From Candidatus Methanophagales archaeon (GTDB lineage: Archaea > Halobacteriota > Syntropharchaeia > Alkanophagales > Methanospirareceae), in the NCBI GenBank assembly GCA_021161765.1, contig JAGGZZ010000081.1:1-39404 (forward strand): 39,404 nt of DNA, in the 5' to 3' direction. A model generated the notes under the pieces. The model saw nothing but the letters and a program-made list of their open reading frames with translations. It searched no databases and was not told where the DNA came from. The position numbers and the translations under genes are program-made. This document shows positions 1,188 through 39,396 of the stretch, piece after piece. Numbering within the stretch: the first letter of the stretch is position 1; each line of letters starts with the position of its first letter.

Positions 1188-1300
1188 TTTACCGCAGAGA
1201 ACGCTGAATTAGAGGTTTAGTTTATTAGCGGTTCAGCTCGTTAGCTAAACATCCAAACCGCTAAACCGCTATCTTCTGTGAACTCTGCGGTTAATCTGAC
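1188..1300 (-). repeat. Degenerate member of the decamer-phased hairpin intergenic element (copy A1)
   Basis: ATTTACCGCAGAGAACGCTGAATTAG ... CTGTGAACTCTGCGGTTAATCTGAC. The arms share CCGCAGAG/CTCTGCGG and the GCAGATTAAC-type unit. The spacer contains AAACCGCTAAACCGCT. Confidence 0.5.
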
Positions 1301-1440
1301 AATGTCGAGTTAATAAACTATGCTGCTTTGGCAGATGGGACATAACACCAGAAGAGCAGCCCGAATTTAATGACATTTTTGATTTGGCAATAACGTTAGG
1401 GAACGCCCAGTAAATAGTTTACCCATTTTTATAATTATCA

Positions 1441-1556
1441 TAGACACAGATTTCACAGATTTACACAGACGCTACTGTCCTGATTAAATTCAATTAAAAC
1501 TTATCAAAATTTAAACTACTTTAAATCTGTGTTAATCTGCGTTAATCTGTGTCTTT
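1441..1556 (-). repeat. Decamer-phased hairpin intergenic element (copy A2)
   Basis: AGACACAGATTTCACAGATTTACACAGAC, then about 52 nt, then AAATCTGTGTTAATCTGCGTTAATCTGTGTCT. The arms are imperfect reverse complements. Confidence 0.85.
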
Positions 1557-1618
1557 AAAAAAAAAGTTTTACCAAAGAAATATTATACCTTGAATTCTAT
1601 TTATTTTACAGAGAAAAA

Positions 1619-2395
1619 ATGCAGAAAGAGAACAAATACAAAAACATTTTGTATGCTAAGAAAGACAAAGTCGCAACCATAACACTCAACAGGCCGAAAT
1701 CGCTGAATGCATTGAACACGGCTTTATTGACGGAGCTGCGGGATGCGTTGGAAGATGCGGAAACAGATGCCGCTGTGCATACAATAGTAATAACCGGGTC
1801 GGGGGAAAAAGCTTTCTGTGCCGGGGCAGACATAACCGAGCTGGTTGAGAAAAGTCCCAAAGAAGCGAGCGAATGGTCGAGCTGGGCTCAAGGAATAACA
1901 ACATACATGGAAAAGCTGAGGAAGCCGGTAATAGCAAAGATAAACGGATTCTGTTTGGGCGGTGGCTTAGAACTTGCGATGGCGTGCGATCTCAGGATTG
2001 CATCAGAAAAAGCGGTATTTGGTCTGCCGGAGATAAACCTGGCAATTATCCCGGGTGGCGGCGGCACACAACGACTACCGAGATTGATAGGGAAGACAAA
2101 AGCGATGGAAATGTTGATGTGCGGGGAGCACATAGATGCGGAAGAAGCTTTCCGGGTAGCACTTGTGAATAAAGTTGTCCCTGCGGATAAACTCGATAGT
2201 GAGGTGGATGAACTGGTCAAAAGACTGCTTTCAAAAAGTCCTGTTACGCTTGGAATATTAAAGGATGCGGTGAACAGAGGTATAGAAATGGATTTGGAGC
2301 GTGCGTTACAGTATGAAGCGGAATGCTTTGGGCATGCATTTGCAACTGAAGATGCGAGAGAAGGGTTAAAAGGGTTTTTGGAGAAGCGGAAGTAA
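1619..2395 (+). CDS. Enoyl-CoA hydratase/isomerase (crotonase) family protein
   Basis: The 258-aa product has the crotonase-fold pattern, including FCAGADI, GFCLGGGLELAMACDLRIA and GLPEINLAIIPGGGGTQRL. Confidence 0.9.
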   Translation: MQKENKYKNILYAKKDKVATITLNRPKSLNALNTALLTELRDALEDAETDAAVHTIVITGSGEKAFCAGADITELVEKSPKEASEWSSWAQGITTYMEKLRKPVIAKINGFCLGGGLELAMACDLRIASEKAVFGLPEINLAIIPGGGGTQRLPRLIGKTKAMEMLMCGEHIDAEEAFRVALVNKVVPADKLDSEVDELVKRLLSKSPVTLGILKDAVNRGIEMDLERALQYEAECFGHAFATEDAREGLKGFLEKRK

Positions 2396-2399
2396 AACC

Positions 2400-3494: not shown

Positions 3495-3526
3495 CTGTAA
3501 GGTAATCACGCAATATCTGGGGGTAT

Positions 3527-10239: not shown

Positions 10240-10349
10240 CTCATAACCTTTACGTGTATAAACGTCTTATCTTATCACTCAAATCTTCGGATTTCCGCCG
10301 CAAGTTTCTTTCTCGATTAGTTAAAATATCTTTCCTGCTTCGAATGAAT

Positions 10350-10610
10350 TCAATATTTTTCTCTTCTATTGGTATTCTTCTTCTTATCAATTAAAATTCT
10401 CATCATTTGATTACATCCCCTTTTCTCGATATAAAATACTTTTAATTTTGGATTTTCCCAATAACCTTTCTTGAATTCACCTTGCCTAATTTGTTGAGAA
10501 TACGTTTCAATTTCTCGGGGAGATAACTCACTGATTGTTATATTCTCTAGTTTATTTTTTAGCCCAGTTAAACCACTGAATATCTTTAATGGTTTTATGG
10601 CAACGATCAC
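10350..10610 (-). CDS. Hypothetical protein, possibly the +1-shifted continuation of 10552..10776
   Basis: It has only a GTG start and overlaps the upstream ORF by 59 nt. Confidence 0.3.
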   Translation of the reverse strand: MIVAIKPLKIFSGLTGLKNKLENITISELSPREIETYSQQIRQGEFKKGYWENPKLKVFYIEKRGCNQMMRILIDKKKNTNRREKY

Positions 10611-10776
10611 ATTCCCAATGGTCTATGAATAAACCTTTATGTTGCCAAAAATGTCCGCCACAATTTGGATGCGCAAATCCGTCATCACCACGAGTTCTCA
10701 ATAAATCCCTATGAAGATTGCTAATGTACTTATACTTGCAGTTTGGGCAGAATTTCTCCAACTCTTCTTCAGACAT
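10552..10776 (-). CDS. Small Cys/His-rich zinc-binding protein
   Basis: The translation is MSEEELEKFCPNCKYKY...HPNCGGHFWQH...HWECDRCHK. A GGAGTGA Shine-Dalgarno-like sequence lies 5 nt upstream of ATG 10776. The track ORF start at 10812 is less likely. Confidence 0.5.
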   Translation of the reverse strand: MSEEELEKFCPNCKYKYISNLHRDLLRTRGDDGFAHPNCGGHFWQHKGLFIDHWECDRCHKTIKDIQWFNWAKK

Positions 10777-10781
10777 ACAAT

Positions 10782-10865
10782 TCACTCCCTTTTCCCAATC
10801 GCCGCCCCGCAATTCGTGCAGAACTTCGTGCCAACTGGCAGCTCAGCGTTGCATTCTGGACACAT
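10782..10865 (-). CDS. 27-aa zinc-ribbon micro-ORF
   Basis: The translation MCPECNAELPVGTKFCTNCGAAIGKRE has a classical CPxC...CxxC ribbon. It is below the ORF-track length cut-off. Confidence 0.35.
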   Translation of the reverse strand: MCPECNAELPVGTKFCTNCGAAIGKRE

Positions 10866-10876
10866 AACAACCTTCT

Positions 10877-10999
10877 TCACTTCTTGAATCGCTCTTTTTC
10901 GAGTTTTAGTTCATGCGCTTTTCTTTCCAGCTCAAGAGTATGTTCATGCCGCTCTGCATCCATATCCAGTTCACGCCGCTGTTCAACTCGTTTCAGCAT
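10877..10999 (-). CDS. 40-aa charged coiled-coil micro-ORF
   Basis: The translation is MLKRVEQRRELDMDAERHEHTLELERKAHELKLEKERFKK. The open frame extends upstream without a start codon, so it may be a remnant. Confidence 0.25.
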   Translation of the reverse strand: MLKRVEQRRELDMDAERHEHTLELERKAHELKLEKERFKK

Positions 11000-11097
11000 C
11001 AACTTCCGTGCAAACGCACTATCCTCACGATTTCTCTGAGTCGGAACTTTTTTTTTATCACATTTAAAAACATGTCAGTGATTCAAGTCCCATAGGG

Positions 11098-11301
11098 ATG
11101 CCTATGAGAATTAGCAAAACCAAAGTTTTTGACTTTCTCATGAGATGCCAAATCGAAAAAGGGGGATATACAGGCAACGACATTGCAGAAATAGCTAAAA
11201 ACATCCCAGTATCGCCGCGAGCTCTGAGAAAACGGATAAATTATTGGAGGTTGAGTTTCATGCAGAAGAGGGACACTCTTGTAGGTGAAGAGAGTGCCTG
11301 A
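11098..11301 (+). CDS. Helix-turn-helix protein, transposase N-terminal-like remnant
   Basis: The segment ...GNDIAEIAKNIPVSPRALRKRINYW is an HTH of the IS630/Tc1-type transposase N-domain style. No catalytic domain follows. Confidence 0.4.
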   Translation: MPMRISKTKVFDFLMRCQIEKGGYTGNDIAEIAKNIPVSPRALRKRINYWRLSFMQKRDTLVGEESA

Positions 11302-11302
11302 A

Positions 11303-11440
11303 ATGAACAAAAAGTTATTAATATTTAAACGTAAGAAGGCAAAAGAACTACACGAGAAAGGATGGAGTAACCGCAAGATAGCACGTCATCTACTGGCAAG
11401 CAAAAACAGTGTAGGTAAATGGGTGCACGCAGATGGATGA
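11303..11440 (+). CDS. Second HTH fragment (45 aa), transposase/resolvase-like
   Basis: The translation is MNKKLLIFKRKKAKELHEKGWSNRKIARHLLASKNSVGKWVHADG. It starts 1 nt after the previous stop and is below the track cut-off. Confidence 0.4.
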   Translation: MNKKLLIFKRKKAKELHEKGWSNRKIARHLLASKNSVGKWVHADG

Positions 11441-11498
11441 AAGCGAAATATCAAGTGATAACAGAGGCGGGGAAAAGGGGAAATTAAAAAACTATATC

Positions 11499-11652
11499 AG
11501 AGACACTGATTAACGCAGACAAAAAAAAAACAGAAAATAAATTATAGACACAGATTAACGCAGATTAACACAGATGATAAGAATCAGCAATGTTCAACGT
11601 GTAAATAAATCTGCGTAAATCCGTGTAAATCTGTGTCTTAAATAGAAGGAAG
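11499..11652 (+). repeat. Composite intergenic element, copy B (hairpin arms + promoter-like end)
   Basis: GAAAATAAATTATAGACACAGATTAACGCAGATTAACACAGATGATAAGAATCAGCAATGTTCAAC...AAATCTGCGTAAATCCGTGTAAATCTGTGTCTTAAATAGAAGGAAG. The aroA ATG lies 34 nt after TTAAATAG. Confidence 0.9.
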
Positions 11653-11679
11653 TGACACTTTATATACAACGAAAAGTGT

Positions 11680-13010: not shown

Positions 13011-13162
13011 AACCACAGATTACACAGATTTCCACAAGAAAACAGAAAATAGATTATAGACACAGATTAACGCAGATTAACACAGATAATAAGAATCAAC
13101 ACGGTTAAACTAAAATAAATCTGCGTAAATCAGTGTAAATCTGTGTCTTAAATAGAAGGAAG
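13011..13162 (+). repeat. Composite intergenic element, copy C
   Basis: It is near-identical to copies B and E, including the spacer (GATAATAAGAATCAACACGGTTAAACTAAAATAAATCTGCGTAAATCAGTGTAAATCTGTGTCTTAAATAGAAGGAAG). It starts 38 nt after the aroA stop. Confidence 0.9.
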
Positions 13163-13182
13163 ACTCAGACAGCACAGAGGCA

Positions 13183-13377
13183 TTAACTTTTTTTGGCTTT
13201 TATGAATTCCGTGTAGCCGCATTTACCGCATGTATATCGGTCTTTATGCTCGGCTAAAAACACGCCCGCACCGCATCTTGGACACGTCTTTCGTTTCCTT
13301 TGCAATTTCCATCCCGCCTTCGCTTTTCCTTTCCCTTTTTCCTCTACCAATTCGTAAAACGTATGTATTGCTGTCAT
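13183..13377 (-). CDS. rps27ae: 30S ribosomal protein S27ae
   Basis: The 64-aa product has the [27 protein letters not shown] zinc ribbon. Its start overlaps the rps24e stop as ATGA. Confidence 0.85.
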
Positions 13378-13706
13378 TCTTCTTGTCCCTCTTTTCCTTC
13401 GCCTATACCCTGGCTGCCGAAATTCCTCCTTATTATGTGTTCCTGCTCTACTTCCTTCAGCCGCTCCTCGTTTTCATATACCCTAGCATAGCCAACCGTC
13501 TCTCTTTTCCCGAATTCCGTTCGCATCTTGTCTATTACGAGCAGATTTGGCTTGCACTGAAGCTTTTTTATCAATACTTCTCGTGCTTGGGCTCTGCTTG
13601 GCGAAGCGCCTTTCGTTTCACTCTTTTCGTCGTGCTTTAACCTGAAAAATACTTCCTTCCTATTCAATAATTGATTTTCCCTCTCCTCTTTTATCTCTAT
13701 TTCCAT
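13374..13706 (-). CDS. rps24e: 30S ribosomal protein S24e
   Basis: The translation is [25 protein letters not shown]...[26 protein letters not shown], typical of S24e. The rps24e-rps27ae pair is a conserved archaeal arrangement. Confidence 0.85.
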
Positions 13707-13722: not shown

Positions 13723-16700
13723 CTATGCCCCCTGTGATTCTTCTTCTAATTTAATAGCAGGTATCCAATCATAATAAACTTTGCCATTTGTGTCAATGAA
13801 CTCATTGCAAGTGATTGTCCCTGCTCCGCTAGCTACTTCTAACTCATCCGTGTGCCAAATCTGCGGATACGAGCCAGTGCGGATGGTGTAGTTGTATTTT
13901 TCGTTGGCGACAAGCGTGAAAGACTTGTTAAAGGATATGTTATGCCAGTCTCCCTTGTAGCCGTTCCAGGTTGCGTTTACATCCAACGTGGAGTTCCATA
14001 TCCTTGCGTATTCGGTATGCCCGCCCGTGCCTGCGCAGGGATAGGTGTAAAGTTTGTTCACGGTGATTGTTTGGCTTGGCGTGATTGTGCCGTTGTGCGT
14101 GCCGAAGATGCTCGGGTATGGATTTACTGGCTCACCCATGTCAAAAATATTTTCCACTTTTATCCAACCATTAGGATCTTCAAATGGATAATGATCTATG
14201 CTGTCTGCATCGATATAATAAGGTTCGCTTCCATTACTTGGATTCCCAGTGCAGACATGGTCGCTCCAATAGTTTCCTCCTGAAGGATAGCCGTTGTCCC
14301 AAGAATTAATGTTACCATTGTCAAATGCTTGATTAGTGTTGTTTATGATGTTATTGTGGTAGATGAAATTGTTGTCAGATGTGCCTATGAGTATACCAAC
14401 ACAGTTATTTGAAGCATCGTTATTCTCAATCGTATTAAATTCGGAGCCTTCAATTAATAGAATACCAATACTTGCCATATCTTCCTCTTCAAAGCCAGTG
14501 TTGTTGCTGGCAGTGTTATTAATTATATTGTTGTCACAAGATTCCGCTATGAATATGCCAAAGTAGTTGTTCGAGGCTTCATTATTCTCAATCATATTAA
14601 ACTCAGAGCCTTCAACCAATAGAACACCTGTACTCGGTGGTATGTCATCATTTCCCTCAAAACCGGTATTGTTATTAGCGATGTTGCTGATTATTTTATT
14701 GTAAGATGAACTTGCAAGAATTATTCCAAAGTCATTATTTGAAGCGTTGTTGTTGGTCAATGTGTTGTTTACAGATTCAACTATGAATATGCCTAAGTAG
14801 TTGTTCGTGGCAGTGTTAGTTTTCACTGTATTCTGATCAGAATTGCCCAATAAAATGCCACTGCTTGGTGGCGCATCATCGCCTTCGAAACCAGTGTTGT
14901 TGTCAGCGATGTTGTTACTAATGGTGTTATTGCCACAAGATTCGGCTATGAATATGCCAAAGTAGTTGTTCGAAGCAGTATTATTTTCTATTTTGTTATG
15001 ATCGGAATAATCTAATAGAATAATACCGCTGCTTGGAGAATCATCGGAATCGGTATTATTTTCTGCAATATTTTTTTCTATCGTGATGTAAGACGATCTT
15101 TCAAGGTATATACCGTGGCTATTATTCGAAGCATCGTTATTGCTTAAAGTGCTATTACTCGATGAATCTAAGCGGACTCCAGCGCCACGATTTGAATTTA
15201 TTATATTATTTATGATAGTTGCAGAAGAATAGTCACAGTAGATGCCACATTCGCTGTTTAAGATTATATTGTTATTTCTTATGATTGGAGAAGAATCCCT
15301 GCTATAAACACCTTCATCACCATTTGATGATATCGTATTATTTGCAACGATTGGGTTAGAGGAGTAATGAAACGAAATGCCAGCACGCAGGTTCGACGTT
15401 ATATTATTGTTGGTGATGGGTGGGGCGGAATAATAACAGCAGATTCCATTTTCAGTGTTTGATGATATTGTATTATTGGCAATGATTGGATTGGAAGAAT
15501 CGCAGCCTATACCGTCATCATTATTTGATAATATAGTATTGTTATCAATAGTTGGGGACGAATGGTCACAGCCTACACCACCACCATTATTGTGGGATAT
15601 ATTGTTGTTGCAAATATTCGGGTCAGAAAAATGTTTACATAGGATGCCAGCATCTTCGTTTGAAGTTATGGTGTTGTTTGTGACGATTCCACTTGAAAAG
15701 TCTTCATAAACGATGCCCTCGTCGGTGTTATTTGATATCGTGTTATTAGTAATTGTTACATTGGAAGATGATTTTAAAGCAATGCCACGCCGATGGTTAT
15801 CTGTTATTTTGTTTCCGGAAATTAATGTATTGCTGGAAGGATTTGCCCAAATCCCATCTTTTTCATTGAGTGATATCATGTTATTAATGATGGTGAGATA
15901 CGAGGAATATGCACCGATGCCAAAATTACTATTGTTTTGCAATATATTACCCTCAATGGTTACATTGGTTGAAAAATTCCACACGTTAATCCCATCATCG
16001 TGATTATCTGCTATCCTATTTCCGTAAATCACTACATCAACTGAAGATCCTAAACCAATGCCATGATCAGTATTGTTTGTTATTGTATTGCCAGCAATAA
16101 ATAATAGGGAAGACGAATCACACCAGATGCCACGACTATTATTTGAAACAGTGTTATTTATTAGAGTGTTGTTGTTGCTGAAACCCACACAAATACCACC
16201 ACCCTCGTTATTCCAGTTTACGATGTTATTAATTACTTTATTATCGTTACTATTAGACATCACCAGTACACCTTCATCGCTGTTATAGGATACATTATTG
16301 CTGGCTATTGTATTATTATTGGCGGAATTCAAGACGATGCCTTGATCACTGGTGTTGTAAATAATGTTGCTTGTTATGTTATTGGTGTTCGATAAAACCA
16401 GAGCGATGCCATTTGGAGTGTTGCAAACAGTATTGTTTGTAATCGTGTTATGATTGGAGTTGTATAACCAGATGCCATTGCAACTATTTCTCACTGTAAA
16501 CCCGCTGATTACACAGTCATCAGCATTCACATTTACAACATCTCCACTTCCGCTGCCATCAATAATTGTCGTGTTCCTATCCTCACCTTGGAGTGTCATC
16601 GACTTATCCACAACCACATTCTCAAAGTAAGTCCCATTATAAACAAAAATTGTATCCCCAGCACTTGCATTATCCACCGCCCACTGTATCTTTGCATAAT

Positions 16701-16797
16701 TGTCAGGCACGTAAATCGTTGCACTCGCAACCCCGCTCACGCAAACGAACAAAGCAAATCCAATCACCAAAACAAATATCAAATTAATCTTCTTCAT
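13723..16797 (-). CDS. Secreted right-handed beta-helix (PbH1/NosD-like repeat) surface protein, 1024 aa
   Basis: There is an N-terminal signal peptide (MKKINLIFVLVIGFALFVCVSGVASA). Dozens of NNT(I/A)SNN..GI turns follow, with about 44-aa higher-order modules (NNTGFEG(D/N)D..PPS.G(I/V)LL...). A NosD-like end (GGNYWSD...DHYPF) precedes an extra C-terminal domain of about 180 aa. N-x-S/T sequons are abundant. Confidence 0.85.
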   Translation of the reverse strand: MKKINLIFVLVIGFALFVCVSGVASATIYVPDNYAKIQWAVDNASAGDTIFVYNGTYFENVVVDKSMTLQGEDRNTTIIDGSGSGDVVNVNADDCVISGFTVRNSCNGIWLYNSNHNTITNNTVCNTPNGIALVLSNTNNITSNIIYNTSDQGIVLNSANNNTIASNNVSYNSDEGVLVMSNSNDNKVINNIVNWNNEGGGICVGFSNNNTLINNTVSNNSRGIWCDSSSLLFIAGNTITNNTDHGIGLGSSVDVVIYGNRIADNHDDGINVWNFSTNVTIEGNILQNNSNFGIGAYSSYLTIINNMISLNEKDGIWANPSSNTLISGNKITDNHRRGIALKSSSNVTITNNTISNNTDEGIVYEDFSSGIVTNNTITSNEDAGILCKHFSDPNICNNNISHNNGGGVGCDHSSPTIDNNTILSNNDDGIGCDSSNPIIANNTISSNTENGICCYYSAPPITNNNITSNLRAGISFHYSSNPIVANNTISSNGDEGVYSRDSSPIIRNNNIILNSECGIYCDYSSATIINNIINSNRGAGVRLDSSSNSTLSNNDASNNSHGIYLERSSYITIEKNIAENNTDSDDSPSSGIILLDYSDHNKIENNTASNNYFGIFIAESCGNNTISNNIADNNTGFEGDDAPPSSGILLGNSDQNTVKTNTATNNYLGIFIVESVNNTLTNNNASNNDFGIILASSSYNKIISNIANNNTGFEGNDDIPPSTGVLLVEGSEFNMIENNEASNNYFGIFIAESCDNNIINNTASNNTGFEEEDMASIGILLIEGSEFNTIENNDASNNCVGILIGTSDNNFIYHNNIINNTNQAFDNGNINSWDNGYPSGGNYWSDHVCTGNPSNGSEPYYIDADSIDHYPFEDPNGWIKVENIFDMGEPVNPYPSIFGTHNGTITPSQTITVNKLYTYPCAGTGGHTEYARIWNSTLDVNATWNGYKGDWHNISFNKSFTLVANEKYNYTIRTGSYPQIWHTDELEVASGAGTITCNEFIDTNGKVYYDWIPAIKLEEESQGA
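13741..13758 (-). promoter_or_regulatory. Promoter-like TTAAATTAGAAGAAG box for rps24e embedded in the last codons of the beta-helix gene
   Basis: The minus strand reads GCTATTAAATTAGAAGAA about 40 nt upstream of the rps24e ATG. It resembles the TTAAATAGAAGGAAG end of the repeat family. Only 16 nt separate the two genes. Confidence 0.35.
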
Positions 16798-17355: not shown

Positions 17356-17400
17356 TTTTTCTACCTCCTATAAAAGTTGTATTTTTTTCTTTTGTTTTTG

Positions 17401-17507
17401 TATATAAAGTATAACCACCTTCTACTTAAGACACAGATTTACACGGATTTACACGGCACGGACTTATTTATTTAATCTTGTGTTAATCTCGTGAAATCTT
17501 GTGGTTT
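17401..17507 (-). repeat. Composite intergenic element, copy D
   Basis: The minus strand reads AACCACAAGATTTCACGAGATTAACACAAGATT...GTGTAAATCCGTGTAAATCTGTGTCTTAAGTAGAAGGTGGTTATACTTTATATA. It lies between the PaREP1 3' end and the small cassette. Confidence 0.85.
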
Positions 17508-17522: not shown

Positions 17523-17906
17523 TCACCTCCTCCCCTCCTCAATCTTCTCAATGTAATATTTGAGGTCATCCAATCGTATCTGAACCTCATCGAAATCCAA
17601 TGACCGCTCATAGTAGCATTCTATATGCAGGTTATCCCGTAGCGAGAAATATAACCATTCAAGCTCCTTTTCCACATATCTGTACACCATGCGTCTTCTC
17701 CCCCAATCTGTTCTGTGCAACTCCTCTTCTTTTACTCCTTTTTTGACCAAGAGTGCGTAAGTGGCTTCTATCGCAGAAAGCCAACCCTTTGCGCAGGCAT
17801 CACACAGAAAAATACGGTCGTTCTTCTCCCTCGCTATTTCAAACTCCTCTACTGCTTTTCGATACAATTTCTTTGCATCTTCCAAATGCAATTGCTCTGA
17901 AGCCAT
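17523..17906 (-). CDS. PaREP1-family (HEPN-like four-helix) protein, copy 1
   Basis: The 127-aa product follows the pattern ...A.KGWLSAIEATYALLVKKG....H......R.........L.....LR..LHIECYY, typical of the archaeal PaREP1 family. Confidence 0.6.
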   Translation of the reverse strand: MASEQLHLEDAKKLYRKAVEEFEIAREKNDRIFLCDACAKGWLSAIEATYALLVKKGVKEEELHRTDWGRRRMVYRYVEKELEWLYFSLRDNLHIECYYERSLDFDEVQIRLDDLKYYIEKIEEGRR

Positions 17907-18034: not shown

Positions 18035-18427
18035 TCACCTTCTTACTTCCTTTAACTCTTCTACCTCATCAATGTAATATCTAAGGTCATTCAAATGTAT
18101 CTGAACCTCATCGAAATCCAATGACCGCTCATAGTAGCATTCTATATGCAGATTATCCCGCAACGAAAAATAATACAATTTAAGCTCCTTCCCCGCATAT
18201 CTGTACACCATGCGTCTCCTCCCCCAATCTGTTCTGAGCAACTCCTCTTCTTTTACTCCTTTTTTGAGCACGAGTGCGTAAGTAGCTTCTACTGCAGCAA
18301 GCCAACCCTTTGCACAGGCATCGCACAGAAAAACACGGTCGTTCTTCTCCCTCGCTATCTCAAACTCCTCTACCGCTTTTCGATACAATTTCTTTGCATC
18401 TTCCAAATGCAATTGCTCTTCGCTCAT
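18035..18427 (-). CDS. PaREP1-family (HEPN-like) protein, copy 2
   Basis: The 130-aa product is near-identical to copy 1 over most of its length at both DNA and protein level. Confidence 0.6.
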   Translation of the reverse strand: MSEEQLHLEDAKKLYRKAVEEFEIAREKNDRVFLCDACAKGWLAAVEATYALVLKKGVKEEELLRTDWGRRRMVYRYAGKELKLYYFSLRDNLHIECYYERSLDFDEVQIHLNDLRYYIDEVEELKEVRR

Positions 18428-18621: not shown

Positions 18622-18721
18622 AACTCTTTTTCTTTTTTACAAAAAACTTTTTTGCTTCGCAAAAACCTTTACTAAAAATAATCGTTTCTTTGGTAAAGCT
18701 TTCTTTTTTGAATTTTTATTA

Positions 18722-18856
18722 TATAATTAAAGTATAACTTCCTTGTATTTAAGACACAGATTTACACTGATTTACGCAGATTTGTTTTTAGTTTAACCGT
18801 GTTGATTCTTATCATCTGTGTTAACCTGCGTTAATCCGTGTCAACGATTTATTTTT
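18722..18856 (-). repeat. Composite intergenic element, copy E (between rpoE' and spt4)
   Basis: The minus strand reads GAAAAAATAAATCGTTGACACGGATTAACGCAGGTTAACACAGATGATAAGAATCAACACGGTTAAACTAAAAACAAATCTGCGTAAATCAGTGTAAATCTGTGTCTTAAATACAAGGAAG. Its first 16 nt are the last codons and stop of rpoE'. Confidence 0.9.
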
Positions 18857-19422
18857 TCTTGTTCCCCTTTCTTCTCTTTCTCCCGCTCTTCTTCTATCCA
18901 CTCTAATTTACCCAAACCCGGCTGCCGCATTGTTAATCCTATCTTACTATCCCCCGGGTCCATTTCATTTAGCGAAATCGCAACTATTCGTGCTCTTAAC
19001 TTATCCCCCTCTCCTAATGTCTTGCCCGTATCCTTGGTAACGAGCTTTTCGCCCTTCTCATCATACGAAATATATTCGTCGGTAATCTGACTGATGTGCA
19101 GCAATCCATCTAACGGACCTATCGCCACAAAAGCGCCAAATGCTACTATCTCTACTACTTCTCCTTCTACTATCTCCTGCATCTTGGGCTTGAAAACGAG
19201 CATATCAAATACCGTTTCGTAATAGACGCCACTGTCTCCTATTATTATCCTCCCTTCTTTCATATCTACAACGTCCAGTATTGCAATGACCATCCCGATC
19301 TTCTTATCCATCCGGCCTTCCAGGTTATCTTGTAACACCTCTTTTACCGTAGGTCGCAGTTCATCACCCAATCGCTCTGGTGGCACCCTTACCACATCAA
19401 TCGCTCTTATCTTCGTATACAT
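18841..19422 (-). CDS. rpoE: DNA-directed RNA polymerase subunit E' (Rpb7 homolog)
   Basis: The 193-aa product has an Rpb7-like N-domain plus an S1 domain (GEVVEIVAFGAFVAIGPLDGLLHISQI). Confidence 0.85.
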   Translation of the reverse strand: MYTKIRAIDVVRVPPERLGDELRPTVKEVLQDNLEGRMDKKIGMVIAILDVVDMKEGRIIIGDSGVYYETVFDMLVFKPKMQEIVEGEVVEIVAFGAFVAIGPLDGLLHISQITDEYISYDEKGEKLVTKDTGKTLGEGDKLRARIVAISLNEMDPGDSKIGLTMRQPGLGKLEWIEEEREKEKKGEQEKINR

Positions 19423-24061: not shown

Positions 24062-24068
24062 TTTTTCG

Positions 24069-24238
24069 TGTATAAAGTATAACAGCCTTCTATTTAAGAC
24101 ACGGATTTACACAGATTTACACGGATTTTTTTCTTGTTTGTTGGACTGTGTGGGTGGCGGGGCTATTTTTAATGGCATTGCTCGTTTCATCTTGTCTGTG
24201 TTAATCTGTGTCAATCTGTGTCAACAATTTATTTATCA
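24069..24238 (-). repeat. Composite intergenic element, copy G (between the OB/HD gene and pssA)
   Basis: The minus strand reads GATAAATAAATTGTTGACACAGATTGACACAGATTAACACAGACAAG..(divergent spacer)..AAATCCGTGTAAATCTGTGTAAATCCGTGTCTTAAATAGAAGGCTGTTATACTTTATAC. The pssA ATG lies 29 nt after TTAAATAG. Confidence 0.85.
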
Positions 24239-25212
24239 AAATGTGTTTTCGCTTTACCCAGATAAAAGAAACGGTCTAATCTCCGGCTGAAATCACTCCA
24301 TACTCCTTCTTTTCCTTTCGCCTCCTCCTGCTTCTGTATCTGCATGAATTCCTTGAGCTGAGAATCGAGCAGGTCGGCATAACATAATGCCTGCGCTTCT
24401 GCAAACAACGGCTTCACCGGGGAGCCCCAGTCACCGTAATTATGATGACTCAGGATAAGATGCAGCAGCCTGAGCTCAAGTTCTTTCGGGAAACTTTTTA
24501 TCTCTTTTATTTTTTCCCCCACCATTCGGTAACCCAGCACGACATGGTCTATCAGCCCGCCTTCTTCTGTTACGTCTATCCGAAACGAATATTTATACGC
24601 CGCTGTTTTCCCTACGTCATGCAGGATGGCACCCGCAAGTAACAAATCACTATCGAGTTCGGGGTACAGCCCGCAGATGGTTTTGCATATCGCTACAACC
24701 GATTGCGTATGCTCGATCAACCCGCCGGAGTAATTATGGTGATGGAATTTAGCGGCTGGAGCCCTCTTAAACGATTTCATAAAGGTGGAGTCGTGGAGAA
24801 AAGAAAAAACCAGCTGCTTAAGATATTCGTTCTCTATACTCTCCGCTGTTTTTAATAGCTCATCAACCAGAAAGTCTATGTTTTTCGATGTTATTGGCAG
24901 ATATTCGGCGATGTCGCATGGTTCAGTACTTTTTTCAAGCCCTTCTGGCGTGAAGATTAACTGTAAACGACCTTTGAAGGATTCCACCACGCCCTTTATA
25001 CGAACAACGTCGCCGGGGTCGAACCGAGATGCGACTTCTTCCGCGTTATTCCAGCACTTCGCCCATATACTGCCCGAGCCATCTCCTAATTGCACCTGCA
25101 GGTAGTATCCCTCTTTTCTGATAAATTCCTTTAGTTCCTTCTCCATTACCAGAAAGGAGGAATCAATAGAGCTGCCAGCCTTTAAATCCTTTATCTTTTT
25201 TGTTTCGCTCAT
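24229..25212 (-). CDS. OB-fold + HD-domain phosphohydrolase (YhaM-like 3'-5' exonuclease family)
   Basis: It has an N-terminal OB fold (GDVVRIKGVVESFKGRLQL) and an HD domain (LIEHTQSV..., GAILHDVGK, HHNYGDWGSP). Confidence 0.7.
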   Translation of the reverse strand: MSETKKIKDLKAGSSIDSSFLVMEKELKEFIRKEGYYLQVQLGDGSGSIWAKCWNNAEEVASRFDPGDVVRIKGVVESFKGRLQLIFTPEGLEKSTEPCDIAEYLPITSKNIDFLVDELLKTAESIENEYLKQLVFSFLHDSTFMKSFKRAPAAKFHHHNYSGGLIEHTQSVVAICKTICGLYPELDSDLLLAGAILHDVGKTAAYKYSFRIDVTEEGGLIDHVVLGYRMVGEKIKEIKSFPKELELRLLHLILSHHNYGDWGSPVKPLFAEAQALCYADLLDSQLKEFMQIQKQEEAKGKEGVWSDFSRRLDRFFYLGKAKTHFDK

Positions 25213-27628: not shown

Positions 27629-28555
27629 ATGTTGCGAATAACGTTTTTAGGAACCGGTGGCTCGACACCAACGCCGAACAGGAATCCTTCTGCAATAGCG
27701 GTAAATCGCGAAGGGGAACTAATGCTGTTTGATTGTGGAGAAGGCACGCAGCGGCAGATGATGCGTGCAAAGACCGGAATGACGCTAAACTCCATTTTCG
27801 TCACGCATTTCCATGCTGACCATGTGCTCGGTATTCCAGGCCTGTTACAAACGATGGCGTTGCAGGGTAGGAAAGAGCCGCTGGAGATATACGGTCCAAG
27901 ACACGTGGATAAATTCCTGTACCATCTTCTGGCTTTGGGGTATGGAGGAAGGAGTTTTGAAGTAAAAGCGATAGAACTGAAACCAGGGGACGTGGTAAAA
28001 AGACCGAAGTATGAGATAAGAGCGATAAAAACGGTGCACAATATAGTAAGTATAGGATACGTGTTGGAAGAGGCAATGCGACCAGGGAGATTTAATCGGG
28101 AACGAGCAATAGAGCTTGGCATCAAACCCGGTCCTTTATTTTCCAAACTTCAATCAGGGCATTCCATTCTGGTAGATGGGAAAGAAATACGACCGGAGCA
28201 GGTTTTAGGACCGCCGCGACCGGGCAGGAAAATTGTATATACCGGCGATACAAGACCCTGCGAAAGCGTGATAGAAGCAAGCAGGGATGCAGACTTATTA
28301 ATACATGAGGGCACTTTATCGGAGGAAACGCAACGGTATGCGATTGAGTACATGCATTCGACTGCTGCGGAAGCTGCGGAAGTGGCGAAGAAAGCGAGCG
28401 TAAGAAAACTTATCCTGACGCACCTAAGCGCGAGGTATTCGGATTTAGGCGGTACGAGCAAGCTGGAAGAAGAAGCACGGCGTGTGTTTGAGAACACCGA
28501 AGTTGCAAGAGAGTTAATGACGATAGAAATTCCTTATAGAGTTGAGGGGGAGTGA
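27629..28555 (+). CDS. rnz: Ribonuclease Z (tRNA 3' endonuclease)
   Basis: The translation MLRITFLGTGGSTPTPNRNPSAIAV...THFHADHVLGIPGLL... shows a metallo-beta-lactamase fold. I chose the start at ATG 27629. The track start at 27584 is a GTG in the centre of the palindrome. Confidence 0.85.
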   Translation: MLRITFLGTGGSTPTPNRNPSAIAVNREGELMLFDCGEGTQRQMMRAKTGMTLNSIFVTHFHADHVLGIPGLLQTMALQGRKEPLEIYGPRHVDKFLYHLLALGYGGRSFEVKAIELKPGDVVKRPKYEIRAIKTVHNIVSIGYVLEEAMRPGRFNRERAIELGIKPGPLFSKLQSGHSILVDGKEIRPEQVLGPPRPGRKIVYTGDTRPCESVIEASRDADLLIHEGTLSEETQRYAIEYMHSTAAEAAEVAKKASVRKLILTHLSARYSDLGGTSKLEEEARRVFENTEVARELMTIEIPYRVEGE

Positions 28556-28868
28556 GGAGAGTAAGCCCCCTTCTGTTTCGGCAGCATTTATCTGCGCGCC
28601 TTCTTGATTTGAGGCTTGCACCCACGAGGTTGGTCGTTCCATCCGTTGCCATACGACCTCATCCTTGCGGAATCATTGCATTGGTATGGCACGGTATCGT
28701 TTCTATACCATAGCCAAGACTCTCGCCTTATGCCCTCACGGCATTCGTGTTTTCGCGGTGGAGGGACTTTCCTCAGCCAGCCCTTCGACAAAAGGTTGAC
28801 CAGTACATATTTTCCGTCAACGCTTTTTTTTTAAAGGGTTGTCCGGCAGCTGCCCTTCCTCTCTCCCC
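28545..28868 (-). ncRNA. rnpB: RNase P RNA (archaeal type-A-like)
   Basis: The minus strand contains CR-I GAGGAAAGUCCCUCC (28774-28760) and CR-V AGAUAAAUGCUGCCGAAACAGAAGGGGGCUUAC (ending at 28561). P1 can form between GGGGAG-A-GAGGA (5') and UCCUC-A-CUCCCC (3'). P2 can form between GGCAGC and GCUGCC, placed as in bacterial/archaeal models. A TATA-like AAAATATATA lies at 28900-28891, about 25-30 nt upstream of the proposed 5' end. The ends are accurate to about +/-5 nt. Confidence 0.8.
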
Positions 28869-34023: not shown

Positions 34024-34180
34024 AACCACGAGATTCCACAGATTAACACAGATGATAAAAATCAACATGGTTAAACTATAAAAGAAAAGGCAAAAAAGTT
34101 TTCTTTGGGATCTCGTGAAATAAACCCTTTCAGGGTTTTCGGGGACGTGGGCAGAGCCCACGATGTGTAATCTGGTGGTT
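34024..34180 (+). repeat. Composite intergenic element, copy H (divergent second arm)
   Basis: AACCACGAGATTCCACAGATTAACACAGATGATAAAAATCAACATGGTTAAACTATAAAAG ... CACGATGTGTAATCTGGTGGTT. It lies between convergent 3' ends. Confidence 0.7.
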
Positions 34181-34187
34181 AATTCAT

Positions 34188-35312
34188 TCATGCTTTCAAA
34201 ATGCTCTTTATCTCTTCCATTCTCGCGTTCGTCTTAAATGCGGTATCTGAAAAATGCGTTCTGCTCGCGGAGAACCCACTTGACTGTAAAGCATTAATTA
34301 ACGACGAAATGGAAGAAGGAGGAACTTTTAACGCCTTGCATATCGCGTGATGCTCATAAAAAAAAGGTATATCCAACTCATTTATAGATGTCTCAACGAT
34401 TTTCATTGCTTCTTTCTTTTTACCCAGTGTTCTTTTCCCCAGTTCGTTATGCACCCGTTCGCAAAAACCTTTCTGTTTTATTGTATTTATGTATAAAGGA
34501 CCGGCAATATGTATTTTCGCACCACATACCTCGCATTTCTTCTCTACTTTCAGTTCCATCAGGTCGGAGCACGAAAACGCGAACCGGTTGCCGCAGGAGA
34601 AGCAATGCGCGATAAACCCAAGCCGTTTCATACAGTCATCGGCTTTTTTCGCCCCTTTTTCCACCCGTGCTATGAGCCTTACGAAATGCGCCTTGGAATA
34701 AGATAGCAGCGGCTGTATCGCCTTGTCATACTTGCACAGGTCTCTCGTTACTTTACCCAAGAGAATACGAGTTGCCATCTCCTTATGATATTCGGTGTTA
34801 AGAGGCTTCGCATCATATTTCCTCAAGCCACCAGAATGAGCTCCGCATAAGGGTGCGGTATCTGTCGCAGTAATGAGCAATAGCTTCTTCGCCGATTTAC
34901 ATGCGGCATCCAGAAATGGAACTGGCGTGCCAAAGGGGTCTAAGTCCACCAGGTCATACTTATTCTGAAGTAGAAGCACATTTGCATTCTCGTTATACGC
35001 CTTCGCTCTTTCTTCAACGGCATTCCGCTTTATGTTTCGGTTTATGACTTCGTAAGCGGAGCTGCTTCGGTCGTTAATAACCACGCGTAAGCCAACTTCT
35101 TTTGCCACTCTAACGCCTCTCACGCCCGTAGCTGCAAGCGCATCTATGTATGTCAGAGGTATCTTTTGTGAAGGCAGAGAGGAAACAAAAGCAGCTATTC
35201 CCGCTATGTCTATGTCCCTGCACAATTCCATCAGCGGGTTATAAAAAATTGACTTTGTAGTTTGTGTCGGTATTAATATCCTCGTGGTTCCCTCTTTTAC
35301 CTCTGAAAACAT
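34188..35312 (-). CDS. trm1: tRNA (guanine(26)-N2)-dimethyltransferase
   Basis: It has the DALAATGVRGVR and VDLDPFGTP SAM-methyltransferase motifs and a C-terminal Cys cluster (CFSCGN...CEVCG). Confidence 0.85.
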   Translation of the reverse strand: MFSEVKEGTTRILIPTQTTKSIFYNPLMELCRDIDIAGIAAFVSSLPSQKIPLTYIDALAATGVRGVRVAKEVGLRVVINDRSSSAYEVINRNIKRNAVEERAKAYNENANVLLLQNKYDLVDLDPFGTPVPFLDAACKSAKKLLLITATDTAPLCGAHSGGLRKYDAKPLNTEYHKEMATRILLGKVTRDLCKYDKAIQPLLSYSKAHFVRLIARVEKGAKKADDCMKRLGFIAHCFSCGNRFAFSCSDLMELKVEKKCEVCGAKIHIAGPLYINTIKQKGFCERVHNELGKRTLGKKKEAMKIVETSINELDIPFFYEHHAICKALKVPPSSISSLINALQSSGFSASRTHFSDTAFKTNARMEEIKSILKA

Positions 35313-36950: not shown

Positions 36951-36953
36951 AGC

Positions 36954-37003
36954 AAGAAAATAAATTGTTGACACAGATTAACGCAGATTAACACAGATAG
37001 ACG
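36954..37003 (+). repeat. Composite intergenic element, copy I (first arm only)
   Basis: GAAAATAAATTGTTGACACAGATTAACGCAGATTAACACAGATAGACGG starts 4 nt after the secD stop. No second arm is present. Confidence 0.8.
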
Positions 37004-37049
37004 GCAAAAATATTTCTTTAGCAAAAGTTTCTTTTTAAAAGAAAAGTTT

Positions 37050-39182
37050 ATGTGCGAAATAATCGGCGTTTTTAACAACGAAAAGTCAACCGAACTCGTA
37101 ATCAAAGGTTTAGACGTGCTGAAGAAGGGCAGAGAGACAGACTTCAGAATTAGCACGGAAAAAGGCGATTGGCATTCAAAAGACCTGCAAGAATTAAAGC
37201 AGGTTGTGAAGGGAGAGAGAAGCAGGAATTGTATTGCGTGTTGTTCCTGTAACGCTTCTCTTTTAAGAAAAGGTTCAAAAGACAAGCTCGTTGCAGATGC
37301 GGAAATTTACAACAGGGGTGAATTAGACGAAAAAGCTTTTCTTTCCGATAAAAGGGTTGATGCTGCGTATGCATTTGCACATTGGATACGTGAAGGCAAT
37401 AGCGATGAGTTGTGCATAGCACGGGACATAATAGGGTTAAAACCTGTTTGCTTTGCACATGCCGATGGATTTGCGTTTGCTTCGGAGAAAAAAGGGTTGG
37501 AAGCGATGGGATTTCCGCATGCATGGGTGCTTGACCCGCGAGTGCTGCTAAGATATGACGTACGGGAAGACAGGTTGCGTTTCGTGAAACGAGATTTTTT
37601 TGACCCTGAACCCGAGCTAAAGGAGGACAAGGAGAAGCAAAAAGGGGATTTGCTGCACTTGCTGCGAGCGAGTATTTCGAGAAGGATACCCTCACAGTCG
37701 GGAGATAAATTTGGCGTGCTCTTCTCAGGCGGGTTGGATTCTACACTCATCGCGTATTTATGCAAGGATTTGGGTGCTGATTTTGTCTGTTATACCGTGG
37801 CGGTAGAGGAGCCAGGAATGAAGGAAGCGGAGGATTTACGATTTGCGGAGCGTTTTGCAGCGGATTTGGGTGTTGAGTGGAAACAAAAGAAGATGCGGGT
37901 TAAGGAACTCGAGAAATATGTCAAAGAAGTCGTTCCCGTGATTGAGGATACGGACGTTATGATGACGAGTGTAGCGTTGCCTTTATACGTAGCATGCGAG
38001 TTTGCGAAAGAAGATTGCGGCATAAAAACGGTTCTTTACGGACTGGGCGCGGAGGAGCTATTTGCAGGCTACGAAAGACACAGACGAGTAAAGAAGGAAG
38101 AGTTAAATAAGGAATGTTTAGCGGGTCTGTTGAGGACACACGAGCGTGACCTTTACCGGGACGAACTGGTAGCAAAAGCACAGGGGATTTCGTTACGAGC
38201 ACCGTTTCTGGCTCCGGATATTGTGGATTACGCACTGCGAATACCCGCATCGTATAAATTGTCGCTCGATAAGACGGAGAACAAGCTGATTTTAAGGGAC
38301 ATAGCACGAGACCTGGGACTGGCGGAAGTCGCGAGCAGAAAAAAAAGAGCGGTGCAGTACGGCTCGAATTTTCTCAAGGCGATAGAAAAGCTGGCAAAGA
38401 AAAACGGGTTCAGGTATAAGAGGGATTATCTAAGAACTTTTTACGCTTCTCGAAGCGTAAAGTTAGGCTGCCTCTTCAGTTCCGGGAAGGACAGTGCTTA
38501 TGCACTCTGGCTCATGCTAAAGGAAGGCTACCCCGTAGAATGTTTAATCACGCTGAAAAGCCATAATCCTGAATCGTATATGTTCCATACACCTGCGGTA
38601 GAGCTGGTAGAGCTGCAAGCCGAAGCAATTGGCTTGCCTCTGATTATGGAAGAAACGCAAGGGGAGAAGGAAAAGGAACTGGAGGATTTAAGAGCGGCAT
38701 TGAGGGAATCGAAGATGAAATACGGAATAGAAGGGGTCATAACAGGTGCTTTACGGAGTAATTACCAGAAGGAACGAATAGAACGGGTTGCCGCGGAAGA
38801 AACCCTCAAGGCGTTCTCGCCGTTATGGCACGTAAATCAGGAAACGGAGATGCGGCTTGTGGTAAATACGTTCGAGCTGATTTTTACGGGCATCAGTGCG
38901 TACGGGTTAGACAAGAGCTGGCTTGGTAGGAGGATAACAGAAGAAGACGTTGACCGATTGGTTGCGTTGGATAAGAAAATAGCGAAGCATTTTGATCAAA
39001 CTTTCCCAAAGTTTGTTGGAATGAACATTGCAGGAGAAGGAGGCGAATTTGAATCGCTGGTGCTGGATGGACCCGCACAAATGTTCAAGAAAAGGGTTGT
39101 CATAGAGGAAAGCGAAATAGTGGAGGAGGACGCGAATACGGCGAGATTGGTGGTGAAAGAGGCGAGGCTGGTGGGGAAATAG
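37050..39182 (+). CDS. Three-domain fusion: Ntn-amidotransferase-like + asparagine-synthase-type PP-loop ATPase + Dph6/MJ0570-type (diphthine-ammonia ligase-like) PP-loop ATPase
   Basis: It begins MCEIIGVF (Cys2). SGGLDSTLIA lies at about aa 225, with AsnB-like LYGLGAEELFAGY. From about aa 480 the sequence LFSSGKDSAYALWLMLKEGY...ESYMFHT...GEKEKELEDL...GALRSNYQKERIERV...AYGLDKSWLGR...IAGEGGEFESLVLD is collinear with the MJ0570/Dph6 family. Confidence 0.8.
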   Translation: MCEIIGVFNNEKSTELVIKGLDVLKKGRETDFRISTEKGDWHSKDLQELKQVVKGERSRNCIACCSCNASLLRKGSKDKLVADAEIYNRGELDEKAFLSDKRVDAAYAFAHWIREGNSDELCIARDIIGLKPVCFAHADGFAFASEKKGLEAMGFPHAWVLDPRVLLRYDVREDRLRFVKRDFFDPEPELKEDKEKQKGDLLHLLRASISRRIPSQSGDKFGVLFSGGLDSTLIAYLCKDLGADFVCYTVAVEEPGMKEAEDLRFAERFAADLGVEWKQKKMRVKELEKYVKEVVPVIEDTDVMMTSVALPLYVACEFAKEDCGIKTVLYGLGAEELFAGYERHRRVKKEELNKECLAGLLRTHERDLYRDELVAKAQGISLRAPFLAPDIVDYALRIPASYKLSLDKTENKLILRDIARDLGLAEVASRKKRAVQYGSNFLKAIEKLAKKNGFRYKRDYLRTFYASRSVKLGCLFSSGKDSAYALWLMLKEGYPVECLITLKSHNPESYMFHTPAVELVELQAEAIGLPLIMEETQGEKEKELEDLRAALRESKMKYGIEGVITGALRSNYQKERIERVAAEETLKAFSPLWHVNQETEMRLVVNTFELIFTGISAYGLDKSWLGRRITEEDVDRLVALDKKIAKHFDQTFPKFVGMNIAGEGGEFESLVLDGPAQMFKKRVVIEESEIVEEDANTARLVVKEARLVGK

Positions 39183-39210
39183 GAAATATGGAGTTAAAAA
39201 AACCACGAGA

Positions 39211-39396
39211 TTACAGCAATCCCTTCTCTATCAACGTCCTCATCGTTCGGTCACAGGCAGTTGTAGCACGTGAAACAGCTCTTCCAAGGTTTGCATACGC
39301 CGCATCATAATCTCCTTCCTCTATCTTCCTTTTTACCTCCATTACTTTTTCTTCTACCTGCATGAATTCTTGCATTCCTGTTGCGTTCAGTGCCAT
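39211..39396 (-). CDS. Hypothetical small helical protein
   Basis: This is a 61-aa ATG ORF. It carries an EEGDYDAAYANLGRA motif similar to the helix-pair motif of 9868..10239. Confidence 0.35.
   Translation of the reverse strand: MALNATGMQEFMQVEEKVMEVKRKIEEGDYDAAYANLGRAVSRATTACDRTMRTLIEKGLL

Follow-up and report, generated by a model that had tools for sequence, protein, structure and literature searches.

The 39,404-nt contig JAGGZZ010000081.1 (assembly GCA_021161765.1) of a Candidatus Methanophagales archaeon, referred to here as the window, encodes among others subunits of carbon monoxide dehydrogenase/acetyl-CoA synthase (CODH/ACS), RpoE', Spt4, phosphoenolpyruvate (PEP) synthase and the archaeal RNase P RNA, and about one in five of its gene junctions carries a repeated intergenic element of approximately 135 nt. 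Methanophagales are anaerobic methanotrophic archaea of group 1 (ANME-1), which are uncultured and key in marine methane oxidation; to our knowledge nothing is known of their promoters and mobile DNA. An earlier reading of the window (the original prediction) had proposed at least ten copies of a combined hairpin and promoter that follow the direction of neighboring genes and punctuate transcription. We find that this is a real repeat family, a multicopy intergenic element with defined boundaries, which is mobile, has inserted at gene junctions and is strongly biased in orientation. It is probably a non-autonomous mosaic element of ANME-1, similar to transposable elements of the miniature inverted-repeat kind (MITEs) or to hairpin-forming doublets (REPINs) of repetitive extragenic palindromes (REPs), which acts as a promoter-carrying gene-junction cassette.

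A repeated element at gene junctions

A repeat search of the window recovers families in both orientations, and multiple alignment gives one common architecture, with a consensus that reads, in succession, CAAGAAAACAGAAAATAAATTATA, GACACAGATTAACGCAGATTAACACAGAT, GATAAGAATCAACACGGTTAAACTAAAATAA, ATCTGCGTAAATCAGTGTAAATCTGTGTC and TTAAATAGAAGGAAGTTATACTTTATATACAA. When up to three mismatches are allowed, ACAGATTAACGCAGATTAAC has seven matches in the window against zero expected. The left flank is A-rich (CAAGAAAACAGAAAATAAATTATA/TTGTT), closes two reading frames within 8 codons and the third within 24 codons (sooner in the TTGACAC variant), and often provides the stop codon of the upstream gene. 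Each of the two arms consists of three heptamers in 10-bp phase (GATTAAC in the left arm, GATTTAC in the right), joined by variable RCN linkers; the arms are mutually inverted (GACACNGATTWAC arrays), and the asymmetry of left and right heptamers is kept even in bacteria. The right flank has the form TTAAATAG-N15-TTTATATACAA and ends at the boundary TATATACAA. Conservation extends over the whole length including the spacer and flanks, and the commonest base has a frequency of 0.8–1.0 at most positions.

The ten positions in the original prediction are designated here as copies A to J. Five are full composites with both arms and TTAAATAG (C, D, F, G and H), one is a variant (E), and two are left halves (I and J). 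Of the at least ten copies predicted, copy A belongs to a different repeat family and copy B to another MITE; the proposed common architecture holds for the five full composites, with copy E having a variant left arm and copies I and J only the left part. The near-identical pair sharing a spacer, given as C and E, is actually D and F (88–96% identity).

Searching 185,579 species genomes with the arm pattern gave at least 108 loci (individual fetched loci are cited by L numbers), mostly in metagenome-assembled genomes (MAGs) labeled ANME-1, Methanophagales or with generic archaeal labels. Among the matches listed, Syntrophoarchaeum, ANME-2, Methanoperedens and Methanosarcinaceae contribute a few, and bacteria, mainly Planctomycetota, about 22. 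Searching the window and the fetched arm-pattern loci by nhmmer with the 135-nt consensus gave at least 112 matches, at least 47 of them full copies. Among the matches listed, full composites with the right flank are confined to at least 25 MAGs of the ANME-1 type and a single Syntrophoarchaeum MAG. Four arm matches were seen in viral contigs, none of them ANME-like.

Insertion at orthologous junctions

The ppsA/rpoE' and rpoE'/spt4 junctions provide the clearest view of insertion. An RpoE' query against metagenomes gave 73 orthologous loci; about 40 of these (70–90% amino acid identity) are empty versus seven that are filled, and the filled ones comprise only a group at 97–98% identity and locus L121. 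The empty junctions are operon-like, with 3–5 nt between the ppsA stop and the rpoE' ATG and 1–17 nt between the rpoE' stop and the spt4 ATG, whereas in filled junctions the upstream open reading frame (ORF) runs into the element and ends at its TAG (TTATAGACAC) or TGA (GTTGACAC). Copy G (19471–19597, minus strand; left arm 19545–19573, right arm truncated, TTAAATAG at 19484–19491) lies at the ppsA/rpoE' junction, and the ppsA stop TAG (19575–19573) comes from its TTATAGACAC. At the rpoE'/spt4 junction, copy F (18721–18868, minus strand; left arm 18814–18842, right arm 18753–18781, TTAAATAC at 18745–18752) has the rpoE' stop TGA (18843–18841) inside GTTGACAC at the start of the left arm. The C-termini of both proteins are altered, from RIEK* to RIENKL* in PpsA, and from ..EKAKG* to ..EKKGEQEKINR* in RpoE'.

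Because presence and absence differ at orthologous sites, the element is mobile and has inserted at gene junctions. The insertion of copy G is recent, as the close relative L110 (88% identity at third codon positions in rpoE') keeps the ancestral ppsA stop; L110 has a different insertion at this site. At the copy F junction, L121 carries the element (L121:3565–3690) with only 65% third-codon identity, whereas the closer L127 (74%) lacks it, and independent site-specific insertion, loss, or recombination between lineages are all possible. In L121 a deletion has removed the right flank as far as the spt4 ATG, and at the same site L110 has another repeat family nested in the loop and L111 has a left-arm-only remnant, a set of variants that indicates turnover. 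Both resolved empty sites hold A-rich stop-codon contexts resembling the flanks of the element (AGAAAAGTAAA and AAAATAAAGGAAG), and there is a candidate TAAA repeat at the ppsA site.

Orientation relative to genes

Orientation was scored for 95 non-overlapping archaeal matches using heuristic gene calls trained on the window, with only tandem-gene contexts being informative. In these contexts 36 elements are co-oriented with the genes and 5 are opposed (binomial p = 8e-7), and for full copies only the numbers are 23 and 2. The downstream neighbor within 300 nt is co-directional in 35 of 47 instances and the upstream neighbor in 39 of 54. The strand of the element changes with that of the genes three times within 39 kb, being plus at 11–13 kb, minus at 17–24 kb and plus again at 34–37 kb, and the lock therefore tracks transcription and not replication. 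The strand bias proposed from the window is thus borne out when a profile model is used to tabulate relatives, although it does not extend to every copy as claimed, since L083 and L051 are genuine exceptions. The reversed copy in L051 lies after the last protein gene of its unit and before an independently transcribed tRNA, and this exception fits a promoter-carrying cassette.

The placement of both ends also agrees with the prediction. The left side of the element adjoins or overlaps the 3' end of the co-directional upstream gene, with a median gap of 17 nt from the stop codon to the element and the stop falling inside the model in 9 of 39 instances. A start codon, in most instances within A-rich sequence (..AAAATG), follows the right end closely, at a median distance of 15.5 nt.

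Predicted promoter and terminator signals

The only native promoter in the window with a known RNA 5' end is that of the RNase P RNA gene (28550–28865, minus strand; 197.6 bits), and it served as reference. Its ACAGAAAAAATATATAGG TATA box lies 24–25 nt upstream of the 5' end of the RNA, with AT-rich sequence running directly up to the start. Within the element, TTAAATAG ends 24 nt before the right boundary (..TTTATATACAA) and at a median of about 39 nt before start codons, such that its spacing to the boundary is the same as that between the native TATA box and start. This geometry agrees with the ready-made promoter of the original prediction, and suggests that TTAAATAG is an archaeal TATA box, TTTATATA a melting region, and the element boundary the transcription start. 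Transcription from the last bases of the element would give the downstream gene a leader of about 15 nt. We also considered TTTATATA as the TATA box, but a start codon follows within less than 20 nt in most copies, and the transcription start would then fall within most ORFs. For wider comparison, TATA positions 5' of element-free genes are broadly distributed, with only a depletion within 20 nt of the ATG, and just three tRNA genes were present in 60 loci to derive a native promoter consensus.

Archaeal terminators are U-tracts, with two U4 tracts constituting a minimal efficient signal for which a hairpin is not required (PMC8716108). Runs of four or more T residues are present on the sense strand of only 3 of 37 copies, but on the antisense strand of 36 of 37 (mean 2.35 runs), notably in GTGTCTATAATTTATTTTCTGTTTTCTTG. 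In L121 the spt4 ATG is 9 nt after TTAAATAG, and spt4 there therefore needs transcription through the element. In its usual orientation the element should thus be transparent to upstream transcription while adding a promoter: with no U4 tract on the sense strand, upstream transcripts would pass through. A reversed copy would present two or more U4 tracts that terminate transcription, and its promoter would fire backwards, so that a wrong-way copy between co-transcribed genes would be polar, would produce antisense RNA, and would be removed by selection. Selection against this polar orientation is the plausible cause of the orientation lock.

The same strand asymmetry would account for copies of the D type in convergent regions. 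Copy D (13035–13165, plus strand) begins 62 nt past the aroA stop (12972) and consists of a left flank (13035–13058), left arm (13059–13087), right arm (13119–13147) and TTAAATAG (13148–13155); it lacks the distal right flank (TTATACTTTATATACAA is absent) and is preceded by an AACCAC-type arm at 13011–13034. It sits between convergent genes and faces the 3' end of S27ae (13183–13377, minus) and S24e (13374–13706, minus), such that its T-rich strand faces the incoming S24e–S27ae transcript. The small cassette previously placed here (ORF 13230–13640, plus strand) is spurious, as S27ae and S24e occupy the opposite strand.

Phased heptamers in the arms

The inverted repeat has a stable RNA fold (z = -4.2 to -6.6), but such a fold is expected of any inverted repeat. 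Among 24 archaeal copies examined for covariation, arm positions 11 and 21 form an A·A mismatch in 20–23, position 16 is never paired, and no compensatory change is found; where the right arm varies between T and C, the A of the left arm stays unchanged. No Rfam family matches the element at gathering thresholds, and a scan by E-value gave only a spurious microRNA (miRNA)-hairpin match (E = 0.003). The conserved heptamers in 10-bp phase, the free linkers, the fixed A·A mismatches and the lack of covariation make the arms look like DNA bound by protein on one helix face, and not like a selected RNA helix. The heptamer arrays are thus predicted protein sites, most likely for the protein that mobilizes the element. 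The arm words may resemble TnsB-binding sites (..GACAGATTAAT..) of cyanobacterial Tn7 and CRISPR-associated transposons (CAST).

Interpretation and alternatives

The insertion polymorphism, the orientation bias and the promoter-like geometry together make a mobile, promoter-carrying cassette the reading we favor, with somewhat better than even confidence. Several observations weigh against it. No fixed-length target-site duplication was found, and the two flanks of individual copies show only weak copy-specific similarity (permutation p = 0.03). Neither an autonomous partner nor a transposase turned up in the window, in the roughly 1 Mb of archaeal loci searched, or between long-range arm pairs. 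The inverted repeat is subterminal, with conserved flanks of about 24 nt on the left and 32 nt on the right that lie outside it and are not mutually complementary. The sequence 5' of TTAAATAG (..ATCTGTGTC; TGTGTC) is not a canonical purine-rich B recognition element (BRE), and the left flank (CAGAAAATAAATTATAG) resembles the BRE/TATA region of the native RNase P promoter at least equally well, so that the true start site could be elsewhere. Identity of about 86–90% in the element versus 65% at third codon positions of the neighboring gene would also fit purifying selection at the host level or gene conversion. The gene calls in the loci are heuristic, and promoter activity, read-through and antisense termination are all deduced from sequence, as are the mode of transposition and protein binding. 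Long-range facing arm pairs were considered as a candidate autonomous element, but the only proteins encoded between them are of the NACHT/FGE-sulfatase (L049) and PHP-domain (L007) types, and neither is a transposase.

In the original prediction, the hairpin terminates or stabilizes the upstream transcript, as a terminator, insulator or 3'-untranslated region hairpin, and the right flank restarts transcription. This would suit a left side that abuts or overlaps the 3' ends of co-directional genes at a median of 17 nt, and the stable RNA fold; a protein on the heptamer arrays could act as a roadblock, and REP hairpins are known to stabilize 3' ends in bacteria. Nonetheless, we regard the terminating hairpin as unlikely and do not retain it, because 34 of 37 copies have no sense U4 tract whereas archaeal terminators depend on U-tracts and not on hairpins (PMC8716108), mismatches in the arms are fixed with no compensatory changes, spt4 in L121 needs read-through, and the ancestral empty junctions are operon-like with 3–17 nt spacers. 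It had also been argued that a randomly inserted MITE would not show such a pattern, but the orthologous presence and absence shows insertion, and selection can yield the lock. The arrays could alternatively be operators for a host transcription factor, kept so as to co-regulate genes, in an element that was domesticated or spread by gene conversion. Binding on one helix face typically has the 10-bp phasing, conserved heptamers and free linkers that are seen here directly 5' of the TATA-like box, the element including its spacer is far more conserved than neighboring synonymous sites, and the flank-like character of the empty sites (AGAAAAGTAAA, AAAATAAAGGAAG) would favor recombination at microhomology. 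A regulon of this type is nevertheless improbable in our view, since the downstream genes (aroA, rpoE', spt4, pssA and small ORFs) are functionally unrelated, related bacterial arms lack the archaeal promoter flank, the half-elements and the copies in convergent regions serve no gene, and close lineages differ in site occupancy.

Orientation could instead be a product of the insertion mechanism, either through A-rich stop contexts of the type (C/G)AAAA..TAAA, which are strand-asymmetric because coding strands are purine-rich, or through directional insertion inherited from a coding ancestor. Both well-resolved empty sites hold AGAAAAGTAAA or AAAATAAA exactly at the left-flank joint, the DNA past the right end is A-rich and often similar to CAAGAAAA, and bacterial GxxExxY units (see below) are co-directional with both neighbors in the six loci checked. 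We consider this possible but doubtful: only two pairs of empty and filled sites are resolved, the flank similarity is weak (p = 0.03), and anti-oriented copies exist. Such a mechanism is also compatible with selection acting too. Finally, a structured non-coding RNA gene or cis-regulatory RNA would account for the stable fold and for a BRE/TATA-like left flank that could transcribe into the element, but is highly improbable given the fixed mismatches, the never-paired position and absent covariation, the lack of any Rfam match beyond the spurious miRNA hairpin (E = 0.003), and the conservation that extends even over flanks and spacer.

Integron attC sites are imperfect palindromes 3' of promoterless cassette ORFs near intI, in which structure is conserved over sequence. 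We rejected them as a candidate since the flanking genes here are core housekeeping genes, the window lacks an integrase, conservation here is one of sequence, and the small cassette is not a gene. The dif/Xer sites, origin recognition boxes (ORBs) and C/D-box small RNAs (sRNAs) were also set aside because their defining features are absent.

Relation to known elements

No published description of the element was found in the literature searched (repeats and MITEs of ANME-1, the sequence words, archaeal REPs and their associated tyrosine transposases, RAYTs). The family thus seems to be undescribed, as originally supposed. It shares with classical MITEs a small, non-coding, multicopy nature and presence/absence polymorphism, but its inverted repeats are not terminal, and no fixed-length duplication or parent element was found for it in the window and the archaeal loci searched. 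The Correia elements of Neisseria (CREE/NEMIS) are 100–160-bp multicopy intergenic sequences with inverted repeats, outward promoters and protein-binding sites, are often co-transcribed with adjacent genes and vary among strains; they have terminal inverted repeats, a TA duplication and parts of sigma-70 promoters, and occur in both orientations. The ANME-1 element is alike in size class, inverted repeats, variable presence and the outward promoter and protein-binding sites predicted here, but differs in its subterminal repeat, asymmetric flanks, archaeal TATA-type box and strong orientation lock, and no fixed duplication was found for it. Promoter-bearing bacterial MITEs have been reviewed (PMC10969869).

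REPs are single 20–40-nt palindromes with a GTAG/CGTC tag and 8–9-bp stems, of which the GTAG-tagged ones flank a RAYT gene (PMC3116915, PMC3733652). The ANME-1 element resembles REPs, bacterial interspersed mosaic elements (BIMEs) and REPINs in being extragenic, in forming high-copy mosaics and inverted doublets that give long hairpins, in its location at gene ends and in long persistence within a lineage. However, the three heptamers of each arm are arranged as direct repeats and form no palindrome, the ends are GACAC/GTGTC or sometimes GCGTC, there is no tag, a promoter flank is attached, and no RAYT was seen in the window or fetched loci. Putative mobile promoters (PMC3575422) likewise place similar sequences before unrelated genes and rewire their transcription, but are defined by similarity alone, whereas the carrier described here has defined boundaries, polarity and insertion polymorphism in an uncultured archaeal host. 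Archaeal MITEs include SM1-4 of Sulfolobus and the palindrome-associated transposable elements (PATEs) of Haloquadratum (PMC10969869), and intergenic repeats of halovirus HF2 have been shown to be promoters (PMC8707807). These are also archaeal, short, non-coding and multicopy; the Sulfolobus MITEs derive by deletion from known insertion sequences and have terminal repeats and duplications, the HF2 repeats are confined to one viral genome, and for none of them has an orientation lock to host genes or a combination of phased heptamers with a promoter been reported.

If it behaves as proposed, the element has a major and so far unannotated influence on how genes are expressed and genomes evolve in its lineage, as it splits conserved operons (ppsA|rpoE'|spt4), rewrites protein C-termini and probably supplies promoters. 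It is also a candidate strong native ANME-1 promoter, a marker of strain-level polymorphism and a source of contig breaks in MAGs.

A possible link to GxxExxY proteins

The bacterial matches consist of the same words in short hairpins and lack the archaeal flanks. In two bacterial loci the arms bracket an ORF of about 130 amino acids encoding a GxxExxY protein (TIGR04256, E = 5.9e-41). Five further distinct loci have relatives of it, and in all five an array (TTTAGACACGGATTAACACAGATTAACAC..) lies 20–45 nt 5' of the ATG. Of the seven GxxExxY loci, five have a second array past the stop codon, and the pair in L187 makes up a 31-bp inverted repeat with 30 of 31 positions identical. All are in Planctomycetota-type bacteria (L027:4330–4835, L052:4885–5335, L187:1420–1935, L196:1390–1990 and L203–L205). 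In the six loci checked the units lie between co-directional housekeeping genes, and in three lineages they are downstream of ispF; among the bacterial loci, ORF-less arrays exceed gene-bearing ones by about 10 to 1. The unit looks like a small insertion sequence-like unit with a PD-(D/E)XK protein. The family (TIGR04256/PF13366, PDDEXK_3) is of unknown function and has undergone transfers between bacteria and archaea (PMC3424549).

These units share with the ANME-1 element the arm words GACAC-N-GATTWAC-RC-N-GATTWAC, sometimes as 31-bp inverted repeats, but are bacterial, have an ORF of 125–136 codons between the arms and lack the archaeal flanks. No GxxExxY homologue was found by tblastn and a profile hidden Markov model (HMM) in about 1 Mb of archaeal loci. 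We put forward the ANME-1 connection as a hypothesis, and only tentatively: the GATTWAC arrays may be the ends of small mobile elements found in both domains and mobilized by the GxxExxY protein with its PD-(D/E)XK fold, with the ANME-1 form being an ORF-less derivative that joined up with stop codons, a terminator on the antisense strand and an archaeal promoter to give an orientation-locked, operon-rewiring cassette. If true, this would give a function to the GxxExxY family and define a new transposition system common to Planctomycetota and methane-oxidizing archaea; the link offers a way to test what a large orphan protein family does.

Other copies and neighboring repeats

The remaining full composites are copies C and H. 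Copy C (11523–11669, plus strand) is directly upstream of aroA (ATG at 11680), with left flank at 11523–11546, left arm at 11547–11575, right arm at 11609–11637, TTAAATAG at 11638–11645 and the end of the distal AT-rich box at 11669. An extra solo partial arm is located nearby at 11503–11520, and the adjoining upstream region of about 1.3 kb (10240–11500) has no confident gene call or Pfam match and contains a AACCGCAAGATAGCAC word at 11369. Copy H (24066–24240, minus strand) lies between the OB/HD (YhaM-like) gene and pssA, and has a left arm (24194–24222), a long spacer, a right arm (24098–24126) and TTAAATAG (24090–24097); the pssA ATG (24061) is 28 nt past the TATA-like box, and the stop of the upstream gene is in the left flank.

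Copy E (17398–17507, minus strand) retains the right arm (17430–17458) and right flank, with TTAAGTAG at 17422–17429 and the distal box at 17398–17415, whereas variant words (CACGAGATT, AACCACAAGATTTCACGAGATTAAC) make up its left arm. The stop codon of a PaREP1-like gene (17523–17906) lies 16 nt before the copy, and a 50-codon ORF with a GGAGGT Shine-Dalgarno sequence is located downstream; no empty site was found among relatives, whose gene content differs there. The PaREP1-like gene and its tandem paralogue (18035–18427) contain a 300-nt direct duplication (17535–17834 and 18056–18355, 89% identity). Copy J (36951–36998, plus strand; arm 36970–36998) consists only of a left flank and left arm. 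It begins 1 nt past the secD stop (36950), and behind it an A/T-rich 'AAAG' module extends to the asnB-dph6 ATG (37050). A solo arm fragment, AACCACGAGATTAC (39201–39216, plus strand), follows asnB-dph6, and has variant words rather than the composite. Copy I (34024–34190, plus strand) is a mosaic of the left part only, between convergent genes and without a right flank, in which a AACCACGAGATT-type arm is followed by one CAGATTAAC word, the family spacer, two GC-rich hairpins (about 34118–34162) and an inverted AATCTGGTGGTT arm.

Copy A (1188–1300) is not a member, and belongs to a family of palindromic words with ACCGCAGAG ends and TAGCGGTTT/AAACCGCTA words; this module also occurs in L043 and L110, nested within the composite's loop. 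Copy B (1399–1560, minus strand) is another MITE, truncated on one side, with the terminal repeat GGGAACNCCCAGTAAATAGTTTACC at 1399–1423. Its type is about 230 nt long with 25-nt terminal inverted repeats (GGGAACNCCCAGTAAATAGTTTACC) and the heptamer arms inside as subterminal repeats; copy B has no TTAAATAG and is in a divergent intergenic region. Other copies are at L005:6677–6905, L074:2512–2770 and about 12 further loci, and in a search for transposon ends the terminal repeats were found only about 230 nt apart.

Several additional repeats accompany these elements. An A/T-rich module (..AAAGAAAGCTTTACCAAAGAAA..TTTTT(G/A)TAAAAAAGAAAAAG..) is present in the window at 18622–18720 (minus), 37005–37049 (plus) and 1558–1590, and at L093:5095–5164. 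It ends right at the ATG of spt4 and of asnB-dph6, and in L093 at the 5' end of a tRNA-Leu gene, and may be a second promoter-like repeat family. A GC-rich double hairpin (AAACCCTTTCAGGGTTT + CGTGGGCAGAGCCCACG) has runs of T on either strand and may be a repeat that terminates transcription in both directions; it is located between convergent genes in the window (34118–34162), and in L110 (about 2830–2880) at the ppsA|rpoE' junction, where it replaces copy G. A DUF3800-X RNA, an sRNA motif, is matched by Rfam at 666–737 (plus strand; 80.8 bits, gathering score 38.2), and is flanked by a truncated isopropylmalate/isocitrate dehydrogenase-like ORF and ORF 749–1153. Many of the internal direct-repeat families in the window derive from a 1024-amino acid protein (13723–16797, minus strand) with right-handed beta-helix/NosD repeats.

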